In this document: positions 164 to 4,992 of the stretch, in pieces | How positions within the stretch are numbered: position 1 is the first letter of the stretch | Layout of the letters: the number at the start of each line of letters is the position of its first letter | Virus record (IMG/VR): IMGVR_UViG_2703718815_000007 | From: a virus | Lineage: Duplodnaviria > Heunggongvirae > Uroviricota > Caudoviricetes | DNA: 4,992 nt | Direction: 5' to 3' (one strand) | The notes under the pieces: generated by a model | Seen by the model: the letters and a program-made list of their open reading frames with translations, nothing else | What the model was told of the DNA's origin: nothing | Database searches by the model: none | Program-made: the position numbers and the translations under genes

Positions 164-1414
164 GTGATGACCGGATTCAAAATTATGAGCAGAGCACTTA
201 ACAAACTGAGCGATACACAGCTAAGAAAAATCAACGGCACACCAGCCCCAAAAACCACATTTCTTAATGACGGTGGAAACCTGAGCGTCAGGCATTCCAC
301 CAGCGGCCTGTTAACCTGGTATTTCACCTACAGGGCAGGAGCTGGACGCCAGGTATCACCGGAACGCCTGAAGCTGGGAAATTATCCTGATCTGAGCCTG
401 AAAGCAGCCAGGGAAAAAGCGGCACAGTGTCGCGCATGGCTGGCAGAAGGAAAAAATCCACGCCATGAGCTTAATTACTCCATACAGGAAGCACTAAAGC
501 CGGTAACGGTGGGCGATGCGATCAGCTACTGGCTGGAAATGCACGTAAAGGAAAACCGTGTCGATTACGTATGCCTGAAAAGCCGCCTTAATAATCACGT
601 CATACAGCATATTGGCAATATGCCACTGGATAAATGCGAGTTACGTCACTGGCTGGCCTGTTTTGACCGGATACGCAAAAAATCCCCCGTAACATCTGGC
701 CACATGATGCAGGCGTGTAAACAGGCGCTTAAGTTCTGCCGTAAACGTCGCTACGCAGTCAGTAACGTTCTGGATGATCTCAACGTGGTGGACGTTGGCA
801 AAAAGCCGGGCATAAGCGAACGCGTGCTAAGTAACAAAGAACTGGGCGAATTATTACAGGCACTGGATAAAAAAATATTCCCGCCCTACTACAGCGCGCT
901 AATCCGCCTCCTGATTGTGTTCGGCTGCCGAACCGGAGAACTGAGATTGTCGGAGATCAGGGAGTGGGATTTTAAGGAAATGCTCTGGACAGTACCGAAG
1001 GAGCACAGCAAAACGAAGGTCGCCATATTCAGGCCAATACCGGAAAGTATTTTACCGTTCGTCACACAGCTGGTGGAGCAGAACCGACACACAGGGCTAT
1101 TACTCGGGGAACTGAAACAGGAAGCCAGCGTGTCGCAATACGGCAGATTCACACACAAAAAATTAAACCATCCTCACTGGTCACTACACGATATACGGCG
1201 CACGTTTACCACGATGCTGAACGATTTAGGCGTGGATCCACATATTGTCGAGCAACTTACCGCCCACCAGATGCCAGGGATGCAGCGAGTCTATAACCAC
1301 TCCCGTTATCTCGATGCGAAACGTAATGCGCTGGACATGTGGACAGAGCGGTTAGAGATACTGGCGGGTACTCACGAAAACGTAACCACACTGCCAATAG
1401 CCAGAGAAATATAA
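164..1414 (+). CDS. int: tyrosine site-specific integrase, P4-type (N-terminal arm-binding domain plus catalytic domain)
   Basis: 416-aa ORF. N-terminus LSDTQLRK...DGGNLSV...GNYPDLSLKAAREKA matches the P4-family arm-binding pattern (LTDxxIRK...DGGGLYL...G.YP.VSLAEAR). Catalytic motifs present: GCRTGELRLSEI (TGxRxxE box), HDIRRT (HxxR), RVYNHSRYLDAKRNALDMW (YN..Y nucleophile region). No strong SD before any start; in-frame ATGs at 164, 167 and 185. ATG 185 (MSRALNKLSDTQ) gives the more typical spacing before the LSD motif, so the true start may be 185. Confidence 0.92.
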   Translation: MMTGFKIMSRALNKLSDTQLRKINGTPAPKTTFLNDGGNLSVRHSTSGLLTWYFTYRAGAGRQVSPERLKLGNYPDLSLKAAREKAAQCRAWLAEGKNPRHELNYSIQEALKPVTVGDAISYWLEMHVKENRVDYVCLKSRLNNHVIQHIGNMPLDKCELRHWLACFDRIRKKSPVTSGHMMQACKQALKFCRKRRYAVSNVLDDLNVVDVGKKPGISERVLSNKELGELLQALDKKIFPPYYSALIRLLIVFGCRTGELRLSEIREWDFKEMLWTVPKEHSKTKVAIFRPIPESILPFVTQLVEQNRHTGLLLGELKQEASVSQYGRFTHKKLNHPHWSLHDIRRTFTTMLNDLGVDPHIVEQLTAHQMPGMQRVYNHSRYLDAKRNALDMWTERLEILAGTHENVTTLPIAREI

Positions 1415-1790: not shown

Positions 1791-1979
1791 GTGTTAAGCA
1801 CAGATCGCTTTATACGTGAAAAAGAATGTCAGCAACTTACAGGCCTGAGCCGTTCATGTCGGTACCGCCTGGAAAAAACCGGACAATTCCCATCACGGCG
1901 TAAGCTCGGCGGTCGTTCCGTTGGCTGGTCTTTATCCGAAGTTCTGGCATGGAAGGAAAGCTGCGAGGCAGTTCACTAA
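1791..1979 (+). CDS. alpA: AlpA/Vis-family small HTH regulator (prophage transcriptional regulator / excisionase-like)
   Basis: 62-aa ORF with GTG start and strong SD. Sequence ...CQQLTGLSRSCRYRLEKTGQFPSRRKLGGRSVGWSLSEVLAWKES fits the AlpA-family pattern (HTH followed by ...G.RSVGW...EV..W). Placement immediately after a P4-type int is typical. Family call is by recollection, not search. Confidence 0.8.
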   Translation: MLSTDRFIREKECQQLTGLSRSCRYRLEKTGQFPSRRKLGGRSVGWSLSEVLAWKESCEAVH

Positions 1980-2031: not shown

Positions 2032-3312
2032 ATGAATACTGGATATTCTCCCGAACAAGGGCGGGGCTTCGTTCGTCCTGAAAAACAGAATCTGCAAAAT
2101 TTTGCCGAAATTATTCCGGTTATTTCCGGCCTTACTGGCGGGAGTGAAACCAATATTGTTAACGCCAGAGCGTTGCAGATGTTTGATGATAAAAAGGGAG
2201 TAAATTTAACTTACACCCCTGACGGCAATCAGAATATGAGCATTATCTCTGAGTCAGGTTTCTACAAACTAATAAAAACAAAAAGCGCCCCGTTGCCGGA
2301 GCGCCTTTGTGAACAATTAACCTACTGCGCAAAAAATGAATCTGAGCAGTGGGATTATATCAACCGTGTGGTGAAGCGCCACTATTGCCGGATAACAGGC
2401 AAAACAAAGGCGACCGCAAAAGGGTCGCCAGTGGGAACAAGGGAAAACAAAAGCATCACCAACAATGCCACATTTGCGGCTGGTGGGCAATGTGATCAGT
2501 CAGATTTGGTTCGTTCCAAGGTTTGCAACGAGAGTTTTTTCCTGCGCTCTTTAAGGAATTTCTCAAGAGCAAACGAACAAGGTGCGAATCTTTCTGATTC
2601 ATGCTCTATCTTTCTGCGCCGTCTTTTCCGTGTCGGTGATAATGTTTTGGTCAATTCTTTATCGGTCATTGTGTTGTCCTGCATAGCAATGCGCCGTAAT
2701 ACCTTACACCACGGCGCTGGTGATGGTTATTCCTGCTCTTTGGCCTTGCGACGCTGGCGGTATTCAACTTCTCGCTTTAATGCTGCTGTTACAAACTGCC
2801 CTGTACTTTCACCAGGCATTTTTACCGCCTCAACATTGTTCATAACTTCATGCGGAACCCTTGCCGCAACTGTTTGTGATTTTGCGTTTACTGCTTTTGT
2901 TGCCATGTTGTGTACCCCTTACAAAAAACAAATGCAGTATGCAGGAAAAAAAATAAGTGTTCAACACTTGACGTGTTTAACACCAGGGCTTAAATTGGTG
3001 TTCAACACCTTACTGATGCAAGGTGCAGAAACGACGAAACCCGGCAGTGCGCTAACACTAACCGGGCTTCTAACCACCAACGATAGAAAGCGTATCGAGG
3101 TAGCTATGAGAAATTATACCAGACACCCGCAAGGGCGGGACTCGTACAACCTGAATAAATACATCTGGCGTTTTATCGCCCTGAGCACGGCACAACCGCG
3201 CGTGATTACCATTGAGGCCACCAGCGAACAGGAAGCGCGTCAGCAATCTCCTGATGGCTGCGTGATGGTATTCGCTGCCCGTATTCGTCAGGGGGTACGC
3301 CATGTGCAATAA
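2032..3312 (+). CDS. uncertain 426-codon open frame, probably not a single gene; the first ~130 codons look protein-like, the middle looks like antisense read-through, the last 68 codons are the separate Icd/Kil-like ORF
   Basis: Seen: no stop in this frame from 2032 to 3312. Codons ~135-290 are Cys/Ser/Leu/Arg/Phe-rich, and this frame is wobble-aligned antisense to two minus-strand ORFs with their own RBS, promoter and terminators. The segment MSIISESGFYKLIKTKSAP resembles the Bro-N/antirepressor ISE.GLY.LI..S motif, but that is a weak by-eye resemblance. Two minus-oriented terminator hairpins lie inside it. Confidence 0.25.
   Translation: MNTGYSPEQGRGFVRPEKQNLQNFAEIIPVISGLTGGSETNIVNARALQMFDDKKGVNLTYTPDGNQNMSIISESGFYKLIKTKSAPLPERLCEQLTYCAKNESEQWDYINRVVKRHYCRITGKTKATAKGSPVGTRENKSITNNATFAAGGQCDQSDLVRSKVCNESFFLRSLRNFSRANEQGANLSDSCSIFLRRLFRVGDNVLVNSLSVIVLSCIAMRRNTLHHGAGDGYSCSLALRRWRYSTSRFNAAVTNCPVLSPGIFTASTLFITSCGTLAATVCDFAFTAFVAMLCTPYKKQMQYAGKKISVQHLTCLTPGLKLVFNTLLMQGAETTKPGSALTLTGLLTTNDRKRIEVAMRNYTRHPQGRDSYNLNKYIWRFIALSTAQPRVITIEATSEQEARQQSPDGCVMVFAARIRQGVRHVQ
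2271..2304 (-). terminator. candidate intrinsic terminator for leftward transcription (distal of two)
   Basis: GC-rich imperfect stem 2285-2292 with 2297-2304 (7 of 8 pairs), loop TTGC. On the minus strand it is followed by TTTTTGTTTTTATT (complement of 2271-2284). On the plus strand it is followed only by CTTTGTG. Confidence 0.4.
2401..2429 (-). terminator. candidate intrinsic terminator for the leftward RHH cassette (proximal)
   Basis: Perfect 7-bp stem GGCGACC (2409-2415) with GGTCGCC (2423-2429), 7-nt loop. On the minus strand it is followed by TTTGTTTT (complement of 2401-2408). It lies 66 nt beyond the stop of the 62-aa minus ORF. Confidence 0.55.
2496..2684 (-). CDS. small highly basic protein of unknown function, second gene of the leftward cassette
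   Basis: 62-aa ORF MQDNTMTDKELTKTLSPTRKRRRRKIEHESERFAPCSFALEKFLKERRKKLSLQTLERTKSD. The internal ATG at 2669 has AGGA 7 nt upstream, so the product is probably 57 aa. Protein-like K/E/R-rich composition, same strand as and just downstream of the RHH gene, followed by a terminator. No family recognised. Confidence 0.4.
   Translation of the reverse strand: MQDNTMTDKELTKTLSPTRKRRRRKIEHESERFAPCSFALEKFLKERRKKLSLQTLERTKSD
2727..2906 (-). CDS. Arc/MetJ-like ribbon-helix-helix DNA-binding protein, candidate repressor of the switch region
   Basis: 59-aa ORF, hand-translated (below the track's length cutoff): MATKAVNAKSQTVAARVPHEVMNNVEAVKMPGESTGQFVTAALKREVEYRQRRKAKEQE. Fits RHH layout: beta-strand (VAARVPHEV), helix A, G-x-S/T turn (PGESTG), helix B (QFVTAALKREVE), basic tail. 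SD AAGGGG 8 nt upstream of the ATG. Fold assignment is by eye. Confidence 0.6.
   Translation of the reverse strand: MATKAVNAKSQTVAARVPHEVMNNVEAVKMPGESTGQFVTAALKREVEYRQRRKAKEQE
2936..2964 (-). promoter_or_regulatory. candidate sigma70 promoter for the leftward RHH cassette
   Basis: On the minus strand: TTGAAC (complement of 2959-2964, inside operator site 1), 17-bp spacer, CATACT (complement of 2936-2941). This gives a leader of about 23 nt carrying the AAGGGG SD. Confidence 0.35.
2955..3009. promoter_or_regulatory. operator array: three palindromes sharing the core GTGTT-N-AACAC
   Basis: Site 1 at 2955-2969 AAGTGTT-C-AACACTT (7-bp arms); site 2 at 2973-2983 GTGTT-T-AACAC; site 3 at 2997-3009 GGTGTT-C-AACACC (6-bp arms). 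The sites overlap both candidate promoters. Confidence 0.65.
2968..2996 (+). promoter_or_regulatory. candidate sigma70 promoter for the rightward icd-like/replication operon
   Basis: TTGACG (2968-2973), 17-bp spacer, TAAATT (2991-2996). Operator site 2 sits in the spacer and site 3 at the predicted start. The 5' UTR would be about 100 nt to ATG 3106. Confidence 0.4.
3106..3312 (+). CDS. small protein, first gene of the rightward operon; possibly Icd/Kil-like (positional analogue of P4 kil)
   Basis: 68 aa: MRNYTRHPQGRDSYNLNKYIWRFIALSTAQPRVITIEATSEQEARQQSPDGCVMVFAARIRQGVRHVQ. SD GAGG 5 nt upstream. The in-frame ATG at 3016 has no SD and lies about 13 nt from the predicted start, so it is disfavoured. 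The Icd-like label is from memory of annotations in P4-like prophages and is low-certainty. Confidence 0.5.
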   Translation: MRNYTRHPQGRDSYNLNKYIWRFIALSTAQPRVITIEATSEQEARQQSPDGCVMVFAARIRQGVRHVQ

Positions 3313-3769
3313 CACCCGTCCGGACGCAGCCGCCGAAGCCATCAAAACGCTGATGCACGCGCTGATTGATATTTCTGTTATCGCAGACAAGGCGCATAAG
3401 CACGCCACCAGCGAAACAGAATATGCCGGGGCTTTCGTTCCTCACTCACTGGCTGTTATGCAATTTAGTGCTGATATGGCACTGAATGAGGCCAGGGCTA
3501 TCCTGATTGCTGATTGTGAAAATGGGGGGGGGGTTATGCGTGATGATCGTTTTAATGCCCTGAAACAGGAATTTTATGGCGCACCGGATGATACAGGCGA
3601 TGCGTTGCTGGTTGTTAATGACCTGATAAAGGCCGCATGTTTTTTAATTGGAACCGCTGAACATTCAGGAACCGGCAACGATATTCTTATTATTGCGTCG
3701 GATTATGCTGAATATGTGGCAGAGGCGCGTTACAGAAGAAAATTCCCGGAGAATGTAAGCCATGTGTGA
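3302..3769 (+). CDS. hypothetical protein (155 aa), translationally coupled to the upstream ORF; contains an in-frame G10 tract
   Basis: ATG 3302 overlaps the upstream stop (3310-3312). Strong SD AGGGGG at 3290-3295, 6 nt upstream. Protein-like composition. No family recognised. Confidence 0.65.
   Translation: MCNNTRPDAAAEAIKTLMHALIDISVIADKAHKHATSETEYAGAFVPHSLAVMQFSADMALNEARAILIADCENGGGVMRDDRFNALKQEFYGAPDDTGDALLVVNDLIKAACFLIGTAEHSGTGNDILIIASDYAEYVAEARYRRKFPENVSHV
3524..3533 (+). repeat. homopolymeric G10 tract inside the 155-aa ORF (encodes GGG)
   Basis: Ten consecutive G read directly. G9 or G11 would give a stop within about 10 codons. Confidence 0.9.
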
Positions 3770-3995
3770 TATTTACAATGACACAGTAGACCGTGCATAC
3801 CGTGCTCTTGCTTACAGTGAAAACATGCTTGAAATATTGTGCTTATGGCTTGAAACGCTTGGCGATAATGAAAGAGATAAACGCAACAGCAATATTGCGA
3901 CGGCGTTAATAACGCTTCTTGAGCCGGTAATAATGGAACTACAAGAAATAGACCTTTTGCACGACAGATATAAAGAACAACACACCGGGAAATAA
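3762..3995 (+). CDS. hypothetical protein (77 aa)
   Basis: ATG 3762 overlaps the upstream stop (3767-3769). GGAGA is 9 nt upstream. Acidic, helix-prone sequence. No family recognised. Confidence 0.55.
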   Translation: MCDIYNDTVDRAYRALAYSENMLEILCLWLETLGDNERDKRNSNIATALITLLEPVIMELQEIDLLHDRYKEQHTGK

Positions 3996-4000
3996 AAACC

Positions 4001-4300
4001 ATGAAACAGAAAATTTCTGGCTTTACTGCCAGCGGCCCCGCTCGGCCTGAAATCCGCCCCGGCGATATTTTCCGGGATAACTACGGCGGCACGGTAACGA
4101 TTAAAAGCGTGGCGGGACGGTGCGTTACTTACCGCCGTGATGGGTACGGCTATGACTGTGTGATGCCTGTTTATCAGTTCCGGCGTGATTTTTCACTGAT
4201 ACAGGCCACACCACGCAAACAGCCCACCAGCAACGCAAAGGCACGGGCAAATATTCAGAAAATGAAAAGCATGATTAACGCATTCAGGGGCAAAAAATGA
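4001..4300 (+). CDS. hypothetical protein (99 aa) with a basic C-terminal tail
   Basis: Starts 5 nt after the upstream stop; its stop overlaps the next start (ATGA at 4297-4300). Core GDIFRDNYGGTVTIKSVAGRCVTYRRDGYGYDCVMPVYQF looks like a small beta-rich domain, followed by a K/R-rich tail. No family recognised. Confidence 0.6.
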   Translation: MKQKISGFTASGPARPEIRPGDIFRDNYGGTVTIKSVAGRCVTYRRDGYGYDCVMPVYQFRRDFSLIQATPRKQPTSNAKARANIQKMKSMINAFRGKK

Positions 4301-4992
4301 AACTGGCACCGAACTTAAAAAAACAGCCACACGACAAAATGACCGAAGTCATTATTTTTGCGGGTAGTGATGCCTGGGCGCACGCGAAACAGTGGCAGGA
4401 ACAGGACGGGCGACTTGCTGGCGACAACGTGCCACCTGTATGGCTTGGAGACAGCCAGCTTGACGAACTGGCAGACCTGAAAATTATCGACGATGGTCGC
4501 TATTGTGTCCGGCTATACAAGGCAGGCCACATCAAGCCGTCAAATATTAATGCCATCGGGCAAAAACTGGCGGCGGCAGGTGTACGGGATGCGAATTATT
4601 ACCCTGAGGGAATGCACAGCCAGAAGCTGGAGAACTGGCACGACTACCTGCAACGGATCCGCGAACAGGCAGAGCGCGGGGAAATACTTACTGACGAGCA
4701 ATACAGCCAGCGAAAAACCACGCTACCAATGAGTATTGGATCTACAGGGTACGACACACAGCTTGATTATGTCGTTAAGGGCGTTATTCCGGCTAATTCA
4801 TTGTGCAGCACATACGGCGCGAGCGGTTCTTATAAATCGTTCCTCGCGTGTTCCTGGGCGTGTCATGTTGCCACGGGGCGCCACTGGGGAGGCCGCAGGG
4901 TTGCGCATGGTTCGGTGATGTATGTTGTCGGTGAAGGTGGCATTGGTGTCCCCCGCCGTATCAGGGCATGGGAAATCGTTAATGATGAACGG
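4297..4992 (+). CDS. replication protein, 5' partial (runs off window): possible Toprim-like N-terminal region fused to a RepA/AAA_25-like P-loop NTPase
   Basis: Hand-translated 232 codons with no stop to the window end. SD AGGGG 6 nt upstream. C-terminal part YVVKGVIPANSLCSTYGASGSYKSFLACSWACHVATGRHWGGRRVAHGSVMYVVGEGG matches the RepA/AAA_25 pattern (...G..GSGKSFLAL..A.AVATGR.W.GR.V..G.VLY...E). The N-terminal region has E...DDG spacing that may be Toprim-like; that part is tentative. Confidence 0.8.
   Translation, partial: MKLAPNLKKQPHDKMTEVIIFAGSDAWAHAKQWQEQDGRLAGDNVPPVWLGDSQLDELADLKIIDDGRYCVRLYKAGHIKPSNINAIGQKLAAAGVRDANYYPEGMHSQKLENWHDYLQRIREQAERGEILTDEQYSQRKTTLPMSIGSTGYDTQLDYVVKGVIPANSLCSTYGASGSYKSFLACSWACHVATGRHWGGRRVAHGSVMYVVGEGGIGVPRRIRAWEIVNDER

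Follow-up and report, generated by a model that had tools for sequence, protein, structure and literature searches.

A length-variable poly-G run at the boundary of two small genes in the early operon of a putative Escherichia coli phage satellite

The island and its early operon

The stretch of DNA analyzed here (the window; 4,992 nt) is an entire 4,992-bp draft WGS contig (LOIP01000090.1; assembly GCA_001607335.1) that ends inside repA. The position of this end suggests an assembly break at a sequence common to another island copy in the same genome; in complete E. coli genomes, the junction described below is present in up to four copies per genome. An integrase gene lies at one end of the window and is followed by an alpA regulator, several small ORFs, and the island's own replication module, represented by a helicase gene (4297-4992) that the contig end truncates (Table 1). 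The resulting arrangement (int, alpA, small ORFs, replication gene) matches that of Gram-negative PICIs of the EcCICFT073 type (Fillol-Salom et al, 2018; PMC6092414), and we assign the island to this type of phage satellite. Its full-length relatives, found in E. coli TW10590 and clone D i14, measure ~10.5 kb and go on with ssb, major-capsid-like, decoration-like, and terS-like genes. The Icd-like gene, the 155-aa ORF, gene C, the DUF4222 gene, and the RepA-type gene are all encoded on the plus strand and linked by ATG/stop overlaps; the 155-aa ORF, which comprises the modules termed A and B below, thus belongs to the predicted early operon of the satellite. Unlike the window, the PICIs in published accounts (PMC6092414, PMC11773190) are described without any mention of a poly-G junction, and our literature searches, these papers included, gave no earlier description of the tract.

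Table 1. Coordinates of genes and sequence features in the window
Feature	Position	Strand	Remarks
Tyrosine integrase of the island	164-1414	+	Pfam Phage_integrase and Arm-DNA-bind_3
AlpA-family regulator	1791-1979	+	Pfam Phage_AlpA
YlcI/YnfO-family gene	2727-2906	-	
Sigma-70-like promoter candidate of the icd-A-B-C-DUF4222-repA operon	2968-2996	+	Consensus match only
Icd-like gene, first of the operon	3106-3312	+	11-nt overlap of its stop with the ATG of A
Fused A-B ORF, 155 aa	3302-3769	+	Matches phrog_2512 (154-aa fused family)
Module A, 74 codons to ...CEN	3302-3523	+	Stand-alone gene of 73-92 aa in split homologues; phrog_5146
G10 homopolymer	3524-3533	+	In the fused frame, Gly-Gly-Gly and the first base of Val; SD-like for gene B
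Module B, 77 aa, MRDDRFNALK...	3536-3769	+	ATG at 3536-3538; stand-alone in split homologues; phrog_24341
TGATGA, tandem +1-frame stops	3541-3546	+	End A in the G8/G11 states; 8-nt ATGCGTGA overlap
TGA stop of A in the G9/G12 states	3561-3563	+	28-nt overlap with B
Gene C, 77 aa, phrog_2196	3762-3995	+	Joined to B by the 8-nt overlap ATGTGTGA
DUF4222 gene	4001-4300	+	
RepA-type helicase/primase, N-terminal part	4297-4992	+	AAA_25; ATGA overlap; cut by the contig end

Several further features surround the operon. On the minus strand, positions 3033-3105 give a full-length but sub-threshold match to the Rfam model of the SymR antitoxin sRNA (RF01809; 32.8 bits versus a gathering score of 61; E = 0.0019). 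The match is antisense to the leader directly upstream of the Icd-like start codon and may represent a cis-antisense regulator of that gene, the first in the operon. The predicted operon promoter occupies the interval that separates the Icd-like gene from the divergent ylcI/ynfO gene, and three operator-like palindromes within 2951-3013 flank its -35 and -10 hexamers (GTGTTCAACAC at 2957-2967 and 2998-3008; GTGTTTAACAC at 2973-2983). Just 3' of int, at 1442-1496, lie ACAAC-containing repeats with a 10-bp periodicity (ACAACGTGGA / ACAACGAGAC / ACAACGACGA / ACAACGGCAA), related copies of which are found at 1714-1738 and, in inverted orientation and of the GTTCCACGTTGT type, 5' of int at 47-56 and 108-119. 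These repeats may be arm-type binding sites of the integrase or binding sites of AlpA. In addition, a 426-codon frame is open from position 2032 and runs uninterrupted, in the same frame, into the Icd-like gene (2032-3312), overlapping in antisense both the ylcI/ynfO gene and a minus-strand ORF of 62 aa. The N-terminal part of this frame shows a weak Bro-N match (E = 0.0095), and in relatives PGAP calls the corresponding stretch incomplete pseudogenes.

A G10 run within a fusion of two small genes

A run of exactly ten G occupies positions 3524-3533 of the plus strand, in the context TGT GAA AAT GGGGGGGGGG TT ATG CGT GAT GAT, and is internal to the 155-aa ORF (3302-3769), so that these coordinates confirm what the first-pass annotation had stated about its location. 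No other G/C run of at least 6 is found in the whole 4,992-nt window, and none of 200 dinucleotide-preserving shuffles produced a G10. When the tract is shortened to G9 in silico, the ORF stops 10 codons past the run (...ENGGGLCVMIVLMP*, stop at 3561-3563); when it is lengthened to G11, the ORF stops 3 codons past the run (...ENGGGGYA*, stop at 3541-3543). Both results agree with the earlier statement that such changes end translation within about ten codons. A point absent from the first-pass annotation is the ATG at 3536-3538, which is located 2 nt 3' of the run and begins a 77-aa ORF that is intact whatever the tract length. Relative to this ATG, the G10 occupies positions -12 to -3.

Comparison with homologues indicates that the 155-aa ORF is a fusion of two genes of ~77 aa each, A and B. 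Annotated homologues consist either of one CDS of 154/155 aa or of two overlapping CDSs of ~79-86 aa and 77 aa, and in DNA alignments of fused versus split homologues the run length is the sole difference. For example, the G7 homologues of O157 TR01, 2013C-4187, and Z1323 are fused, the G8 homologue of STEC299 comprises two genes with the 8-nt overlap ATGCGTGA, and the G9 homologue of PEC178 comprises two genes with a 28-nt overlap. In the fused states (G7/G10), A and B are joined through a Gly2-3-Val linker; in the G9/G12 states, A ends in an alternative 10-residue tail. PHROGs places the fused, A-only, and B-only proteins in separate families (phrog_2512, phrog_5146, and phrog_24341), with no assigned function.

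Both halves of the fusion appear to be maintained as proteins. Nearly all split loci retain an intact B, which is 73 or 77 aa long. The dN/dS values of ~0.27-0.32 for A and ~0.24-0.30 for B point to purifying selection on both halves in every frame class, the class-specific values being weakly discriminating because the tract state changes faster than substitutions build up. Searches of Pfam, NCBIfam, PADLOC, and PDB profiles for a function of A, B, or C gave no match. A relationship of A, B, and C as tandem paralogues, which would make the fusion a pseudo-dimer, was ruled out by hhalign probabilities of 0.2-1.7%. The AlphaFold2 model of the fused protein, computed from a 40-sequence alignment, is all-helical with the linker at residues 74-80; it is of low confidence (pLDDT 51.8, pTM 0.42) and too poor for a fold search.

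Tract lengths in viral contigs, metagenomes, and E. coli genomes

To survey tract length, we used a pattern scan that tolerates any 4-16 bases between the invariant flanks. It yielded 90 viral-contig loci and one Shigella locus; in a genome collection with one genome per species, the single match was Shigella flexneri, with G8. The set of IMG/VR loci, E. coli loci, and the window (n = 97) contains G7 in 26 cases, G8 in 36, G9 in 19, G10 in 5, and G11 in 2, as well as 9 interrupted tracts of the forms GGGGGTGG, GGGGTGGG, GGGGGGGGTGG, and GGGGAGGGGGGG. An independent metagenome scan (n = 53) has its mode at G8 as well (27 loci), with 10 G7, 12 G9, one G10, and 3 interrupted tracts. Pooled over 150 loci, lengths of 7, 8, 9, 10, 11, and 12 nt are represented 36, 69, 31, 6, 4, and 4 times, respectively, with the reservation that some tract lengths in public assemblies may be homopolymer errors. 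Expressed as frame classes, 73 of these loci have the 8-nt overlap, 42 are fused, and 35 have the 28-nt overlap. The tract is pure in 92% of the 150 loci and interrupted in ~8%, and no tract shorter than 7 with these flanks is found among them, even though tracts of 2-18 would have matched the pattern. The split state with the 8-nt overlap is enriched (49% versus 33% expected), and the frame is therefore not entirely neutral.

The first-pass annotation had proposed comparing tract length in homologous elements, and this comparison uncovered lengths of G7-G12 with all three reading frames. It had also named a pattern that would speak against a variable tract, namely homologues with an interrupted tract that encodes the same residues and no length variation in deep sequencing. 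Among the homologues, interruptions occur in only ~8% of loci, and length varies extensively.

We further searched 5,426 complete E. coli genomes with short queries that carry the invariant flanks. The junction is present in 737 of them (~14%). Exact matches number 371 for G7, 165 for G8, 94 for G9, 15 for G10, and 3 for G11; in these counts clonal STEC inflates G7, multi-copy genomes may count repeatedly, and homopolymers may be miscalled in some of the long-read assemblies. As a natural state, G10 is genuine: E. coli 042, one of the 15 complete genomes with G10, encodes it as a single 155-aa CDS, and proteins of 155 aa with the motif ENGGGV make up 50 of the best 120 protein clusters, some of which have ~200 member sequences. 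With a share of 2-4%, G10 is nevertheless a minority state, and the window carries a minority fused variant.

The run changes length faster than its flanks

Tract length varies even where the surrounding sequence does not. Of 18 groups of loci with identical 470-nt flanks, 8 hold mixed tract lengths, which indicates that the tract behaves as a hypermutable run. Pairs of loci agree in length in 22 of 33 cases at zero flank differences and in 4 of 33 at one to five differences, the agreement expected by chance being 0.29. For example, E. coli 042 (G10) and O157 TR01 (G7) are 98.7% identical over 1,665 nt. The window itself has G11 in its closest whole-element relative (TW10590), G8 in its nearest A-B DNA relatives, and fused proteins of the G7 type as its closest protein matches (97% identity). 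Such differences among near-identical relatives imply that length changes far faster than point substitutions accumulate. Tract purity, at 92%, contrasts with a pS of 0.3-0.38, but synonymous sites are also invariant in the adjacent 48 nt of B. Like an SSR locus, the junction has an uninterrupted repeat within coding sequence (G10 in ORF 3302-3769) and a repeat number that varies among close relatives.

An alternative junction, A'-B (CAGGGGGGTAAACATG, e.g. in L232), carries a G6 run of near-fixed length, with one length change in 23 loci; three of the 23 have a T-to-G substitution. Slippage depends steeply on run length, and the near-fixed G6 junction fits this dependence. A G4 form, in which A and B are fused in frame, was observed in L189 and two other loci, with the junction GAATATGGGGTTATG and an AAT-to-TAT change.

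A second length-variable poly-G tract (G5-G10) lies mid-gene in C', an alternative allele of the third small ORF, 98-99 nt past the stop of B and in two diverged flank contexts. It was seen in L002 (2065-2073; G9) as well as in L008, L033, L036, L048, L060, L066, L067, L076, L260, L273, L291, L292, L298, and L309; gene C of the window (3762-3995) is without any G-run. C' is in frame only at G5, G8, and G11; of 15 contig copies, 10 are out of frame, and the match spans suggest the same for ~11 of 15 copies in complete genomes. A dedicated scan of viral contigs for C' gave no loci beyond the 8 already in the set. Since no start codon follows the C' tract, a Shine-Dalgarno (SD) role cannot explain this run, and mutational bias or selection for mutability can therefore keep such runs. 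A common mutational equilibrium would account for the similarity of the A/B-junction and C' tracts, and so would selection for mutability.

The run as a predicted Shine-Dalgarno sequence and the ancestral junction

The G-run occupies the place of the predicted SD sequence of B. Its computed pairing with the 3' end of 16S rRNA (anti-SD) amounts to -11.1 kcal/mol and is the strongest in the operon, the other values ranging from -4.3 to -10.7; the pairing energy plateaus at runs of at least seven G, and longer runs permit better spacing to the ATG. Over codons 1-16 of B (3536-3583), all six four-fold sites are invariant in 38 distinct sequences, compared with a four-fold heterozygosity of 0.25-0.35 in the rest of B and of 0.33 at the 3' end of A. 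For segments that contain the run and the start codon, predicted folding is weaker than for shuffles (z +0.9 to +1.05). Together, the open fold and the invariant early sites are a signature of an open, independently used initiation region of B.

Translationally coupled gene pairs have an SD-like sequence inside the upstream gene, which the computed anti-SD pairing points to here, and a downstream ORF conserved as an independent gene, which is the case for B. They also have a start codon that overlaps the upstream stop. This overlap is absent from the window, where G10 creates an in-frame fusion, and is present as ATGCGTGA in the G8/G11 homologues (73 of 150 loci).

Loci ascertained through only one of the modules have more conventional junctions. 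In A-ascertained loci, A is joined to other downstream modules by an ordinary SD and overlaps of 8-11 nt. At the junction CAAGGGGCGCACCATGCATGA, the downstream protein (MHDDRYF...) is a diverged B; further junctions with other modules are GGAGGTGGTGAGCCATGAATAA and AATGGCGGGGGCGATTATGCGAAATAA, and at the latter A ends in ...ENGGGDYAK*, in the frame of the G8 state (...ENGGGYA*). B-ascertained loci include B behind a different upstream gene, with the junction CAGGGGGGTAAACATGCGTGA. A representative search of 1.84 billion proteins recovered only 49 clusters, so that the family is narrow, and offered no functional lead. The diverged homologues in these clusters are mostly A-only or B-only, and the B-only proteins begin exactly at Met79 after the run. 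Given the ordinary two-gene junctions and the A-only and B-only diverged relatives, the arrangement of two genes with an 8-nt overlap (G8/G11), which is the commonest state, is probably also the ancestral one.

Some BLAST matches in E. coli genomes are partial and break off close to the junction (ORF positions 194/195, 206, 239, and 303). The invariant stretch at 3536-3583 may thus additionally act as a linker for recombination that exchanges A and B modules.

Interpretation of the junction

We favor, as the probable though by no means certain explanation, a slippage-prone run at the A/B boundary that is at once the tail of A and the SD of B, and whose frame states are tolerated and drift. The run would supply the Gly codons of the C-terminal tail of A together with the SD for B, and replication slippage would alter its length. 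Lengths of 8 or 11 give two genes with the 8-nt ATGCGTGA overlap, lengths of 9 or 12 two genes with the 28-nt overlap, and lengths of 7 or 10 the fusion. The A core and the whole ORF of B survive in every frame, and B could begin at its own ATG; all three states would therefore be tolerated. The fused and split forms would then be functionally equivalent, and the states would drift rapidly. The analysis shows the tract and its polymorphism, the effect of its length on the frame, both halves intact and under purifying selection, and A and B as separate genes in diverged relatives; we infer that slippage is the mechanism, that B is initiated independently, and that fused and split products are functionally equivalent.

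ON/OFF switching, a further hallmark of an SSR contingency locus, is not found at this junction, since the A core, the B ORF, and its ATG are intact in three frames. Slippage thus appears to toggle between fusion and separation of A and B rather than to switch either of them ON or OFF. The first-pass annotation had suggested that an OFF state could lower expression of the downstream genes. This idea finds no support: lengths that would count as OFF make up 72% of the 150 loci, more than any other in nature, and at these lengths the ORF resolves into A and B, with B keeping its ATG and the G-run SD. The tract probably has little polar effect on repA. As for the comparison with contingency tracts made in the same annotation, the slippage-prone and length-variable character of the run stands, but frame changes switch neither gene off.

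The SD role would account for only part of the pattern. An SD requires only 4-6 purines, and a GGAGG core would be at least as good. As 4-6 purines suffice, the SD role alone does not explain why pure G7-G11 runs are found in 92% of loci while synonymous divergence elsewhere has reached ~0.3-0.38.

An alternative is a true phase-variation locus, in which selection would keep the run pure for its mutability and the products would alternate stochastically between fused A-B and separate A and B. We regard this as unlikely, while giving it some weight. The same standing applies to its extension, in which C' would be switched ON/OFF in some islands too and satellite behavior, e.g. helper interaction or replication timing, would be diversified. 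Besides the purity of 92% of 150 tracts despite a synonymous divergence of 0.3-0.38, a tract length uncoupled from phylogeny, an equally variable second poly-G tract without SD role in a neighboring gene allele, and the presence of the junction in 737 of 5,426 complete E. coli genomes speak in its favor. However, no tract state abolishes A or B, and the length distribution is smooth and unimodal without a 3-nt periodicity, as a mutational equilibrium predicts. Interrupted, locked variants exist in split frames, and a G4 fused form exists too; moreover, the SD role and the constraint on the initiation region are a simpler cause of the G-richness. That the early operon carries one or two poly-G contingency loci, at the A/B junction and in C', seems to us distinctly unlikely. 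If it did, subpopulations would arise stochastically that differ in the fusion of A and B and in whether C' is ON or OFF, as a form of bet-hedging in the conflict between satellite, helper, and host; no earlier SSR phase variation would then have been described for a phage satellite or for an MMR-proficient enterobacterium.

The two other readings concern the window's own sequence and the expression of the locus. The G10 could have arisen by miscalling of the homopolymer or in assembly, in which case the true element would have G9 or G11 and hence two genes. The window is indeed a single draft contig that breaks inside repA, its exact protein occurs in no other assembly, so that the G10 of this allele is without an independent replicate, its closest whole-window relative has G11 and its nearest A-B DNA relatives G8, and G10 is rare (2-4%). 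We nonetheless consider an artefact improbable, given that G10 is found in 15 complete genomes including E. coli 042, that 155-aa proteins with ENGGGV constitute 50 of the best 120 protein clusters, and that the closest proteins (97% identity) are also fused, albeit of the G7 type. Less likely still, and in our view very improbable, is programmed recoding, by which RNA-polymerase slippage or ribosomal frameshifting would yield fused and separate products from one template. Long homopolymers are in principle slippery for polymerases, and recoding could buffer the tolerance of all three DNA frames. Recoding sites, however, usually conserve one out-of-frame arrangement, whereas here the three frame classes comprise 73, 42, and 35 of 150 loci, and diverged relatives have ordinary two-gene junctions without the run. 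A search for stimulatory or conserved RNA structure flanking the run found none (z -0.81 to +1.05). In E. coli, moreover, the documented cases of efficient transcriptional slippage mostly concern A/T runs.

Relation to known systems and implications

Homopolymer slippage, SSR polymorphism, and fusion or fission of genes by frameshift are already known phenomena. Homopolymeric poly-G/poly-C contingency loci are known from Neisseria, Haemophilus, Campylobacter, Helicobacter, and Bordetella. Examples are gonococcal pgtA and tracts of B. pertussis (PMC2193922, PMC1891110). With such loci the junction shares an uninterrupted coding G-run of at least 7, variation in length among close strains, and the resulting frame shifts. 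It differs from them in that the frame change sets fused versus separate proteins and leaves no gene OFF, and in its host, MMR-proficient E. coli, where such switches are rare.

A second parallel is provided by the coupled overlapping gene pairs of phage and satellite operons, which have ATGA or ATGNNTGA junctions and an SD inside the upstream gene. The G8/G11 junction ATGCGTGA has the same 8-nt architecture as the B-to-C junction ATGTGTGA of the window and as the junctions that link A and B to other modules, and a purine-rich SD lies in the last codons of the upstream gene, as in coupled pairs. Unlike in such pairs, the SD is a pure G7-G12 run instead of a GGAGG-type sequence, the junction is mutationally unstable, and the window has an in-frame A-B fusion in place of coupling. 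In Helicobacter pylori, ORFs are split or fused at poly-G/C tracts by homopolymer frameshifts. The junction resembles this fusion and fission, as single-base slippage would turn two ORFs into one and back; here, by contrast, the downstream ORF keeps its own start signals, both arrangements are plausibly functional, and the tract resides in a mobile satellite.

Roughly every seventh complete E. coli genome carries the junction, which is annotated inconsistently as one gene or two. Three PHROGs families correspond to one locus, and a hypermutable gene boundary explains these discrepancies in annotation. Caution is therefore advisable in both directions, in that split forms are not to be taken for pseudogenes, nor fused forms for novel proteins. 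If the fused and split states are equivalent, a pure-G Shine-Dalgarno would make a gene junction unstable yet harmless. If they differ functionally, the locus would add to the few cases of slipped-strand variation in E. coli and would make the small proteins encoded ahead of the PICI replication gene experimentally accessible.
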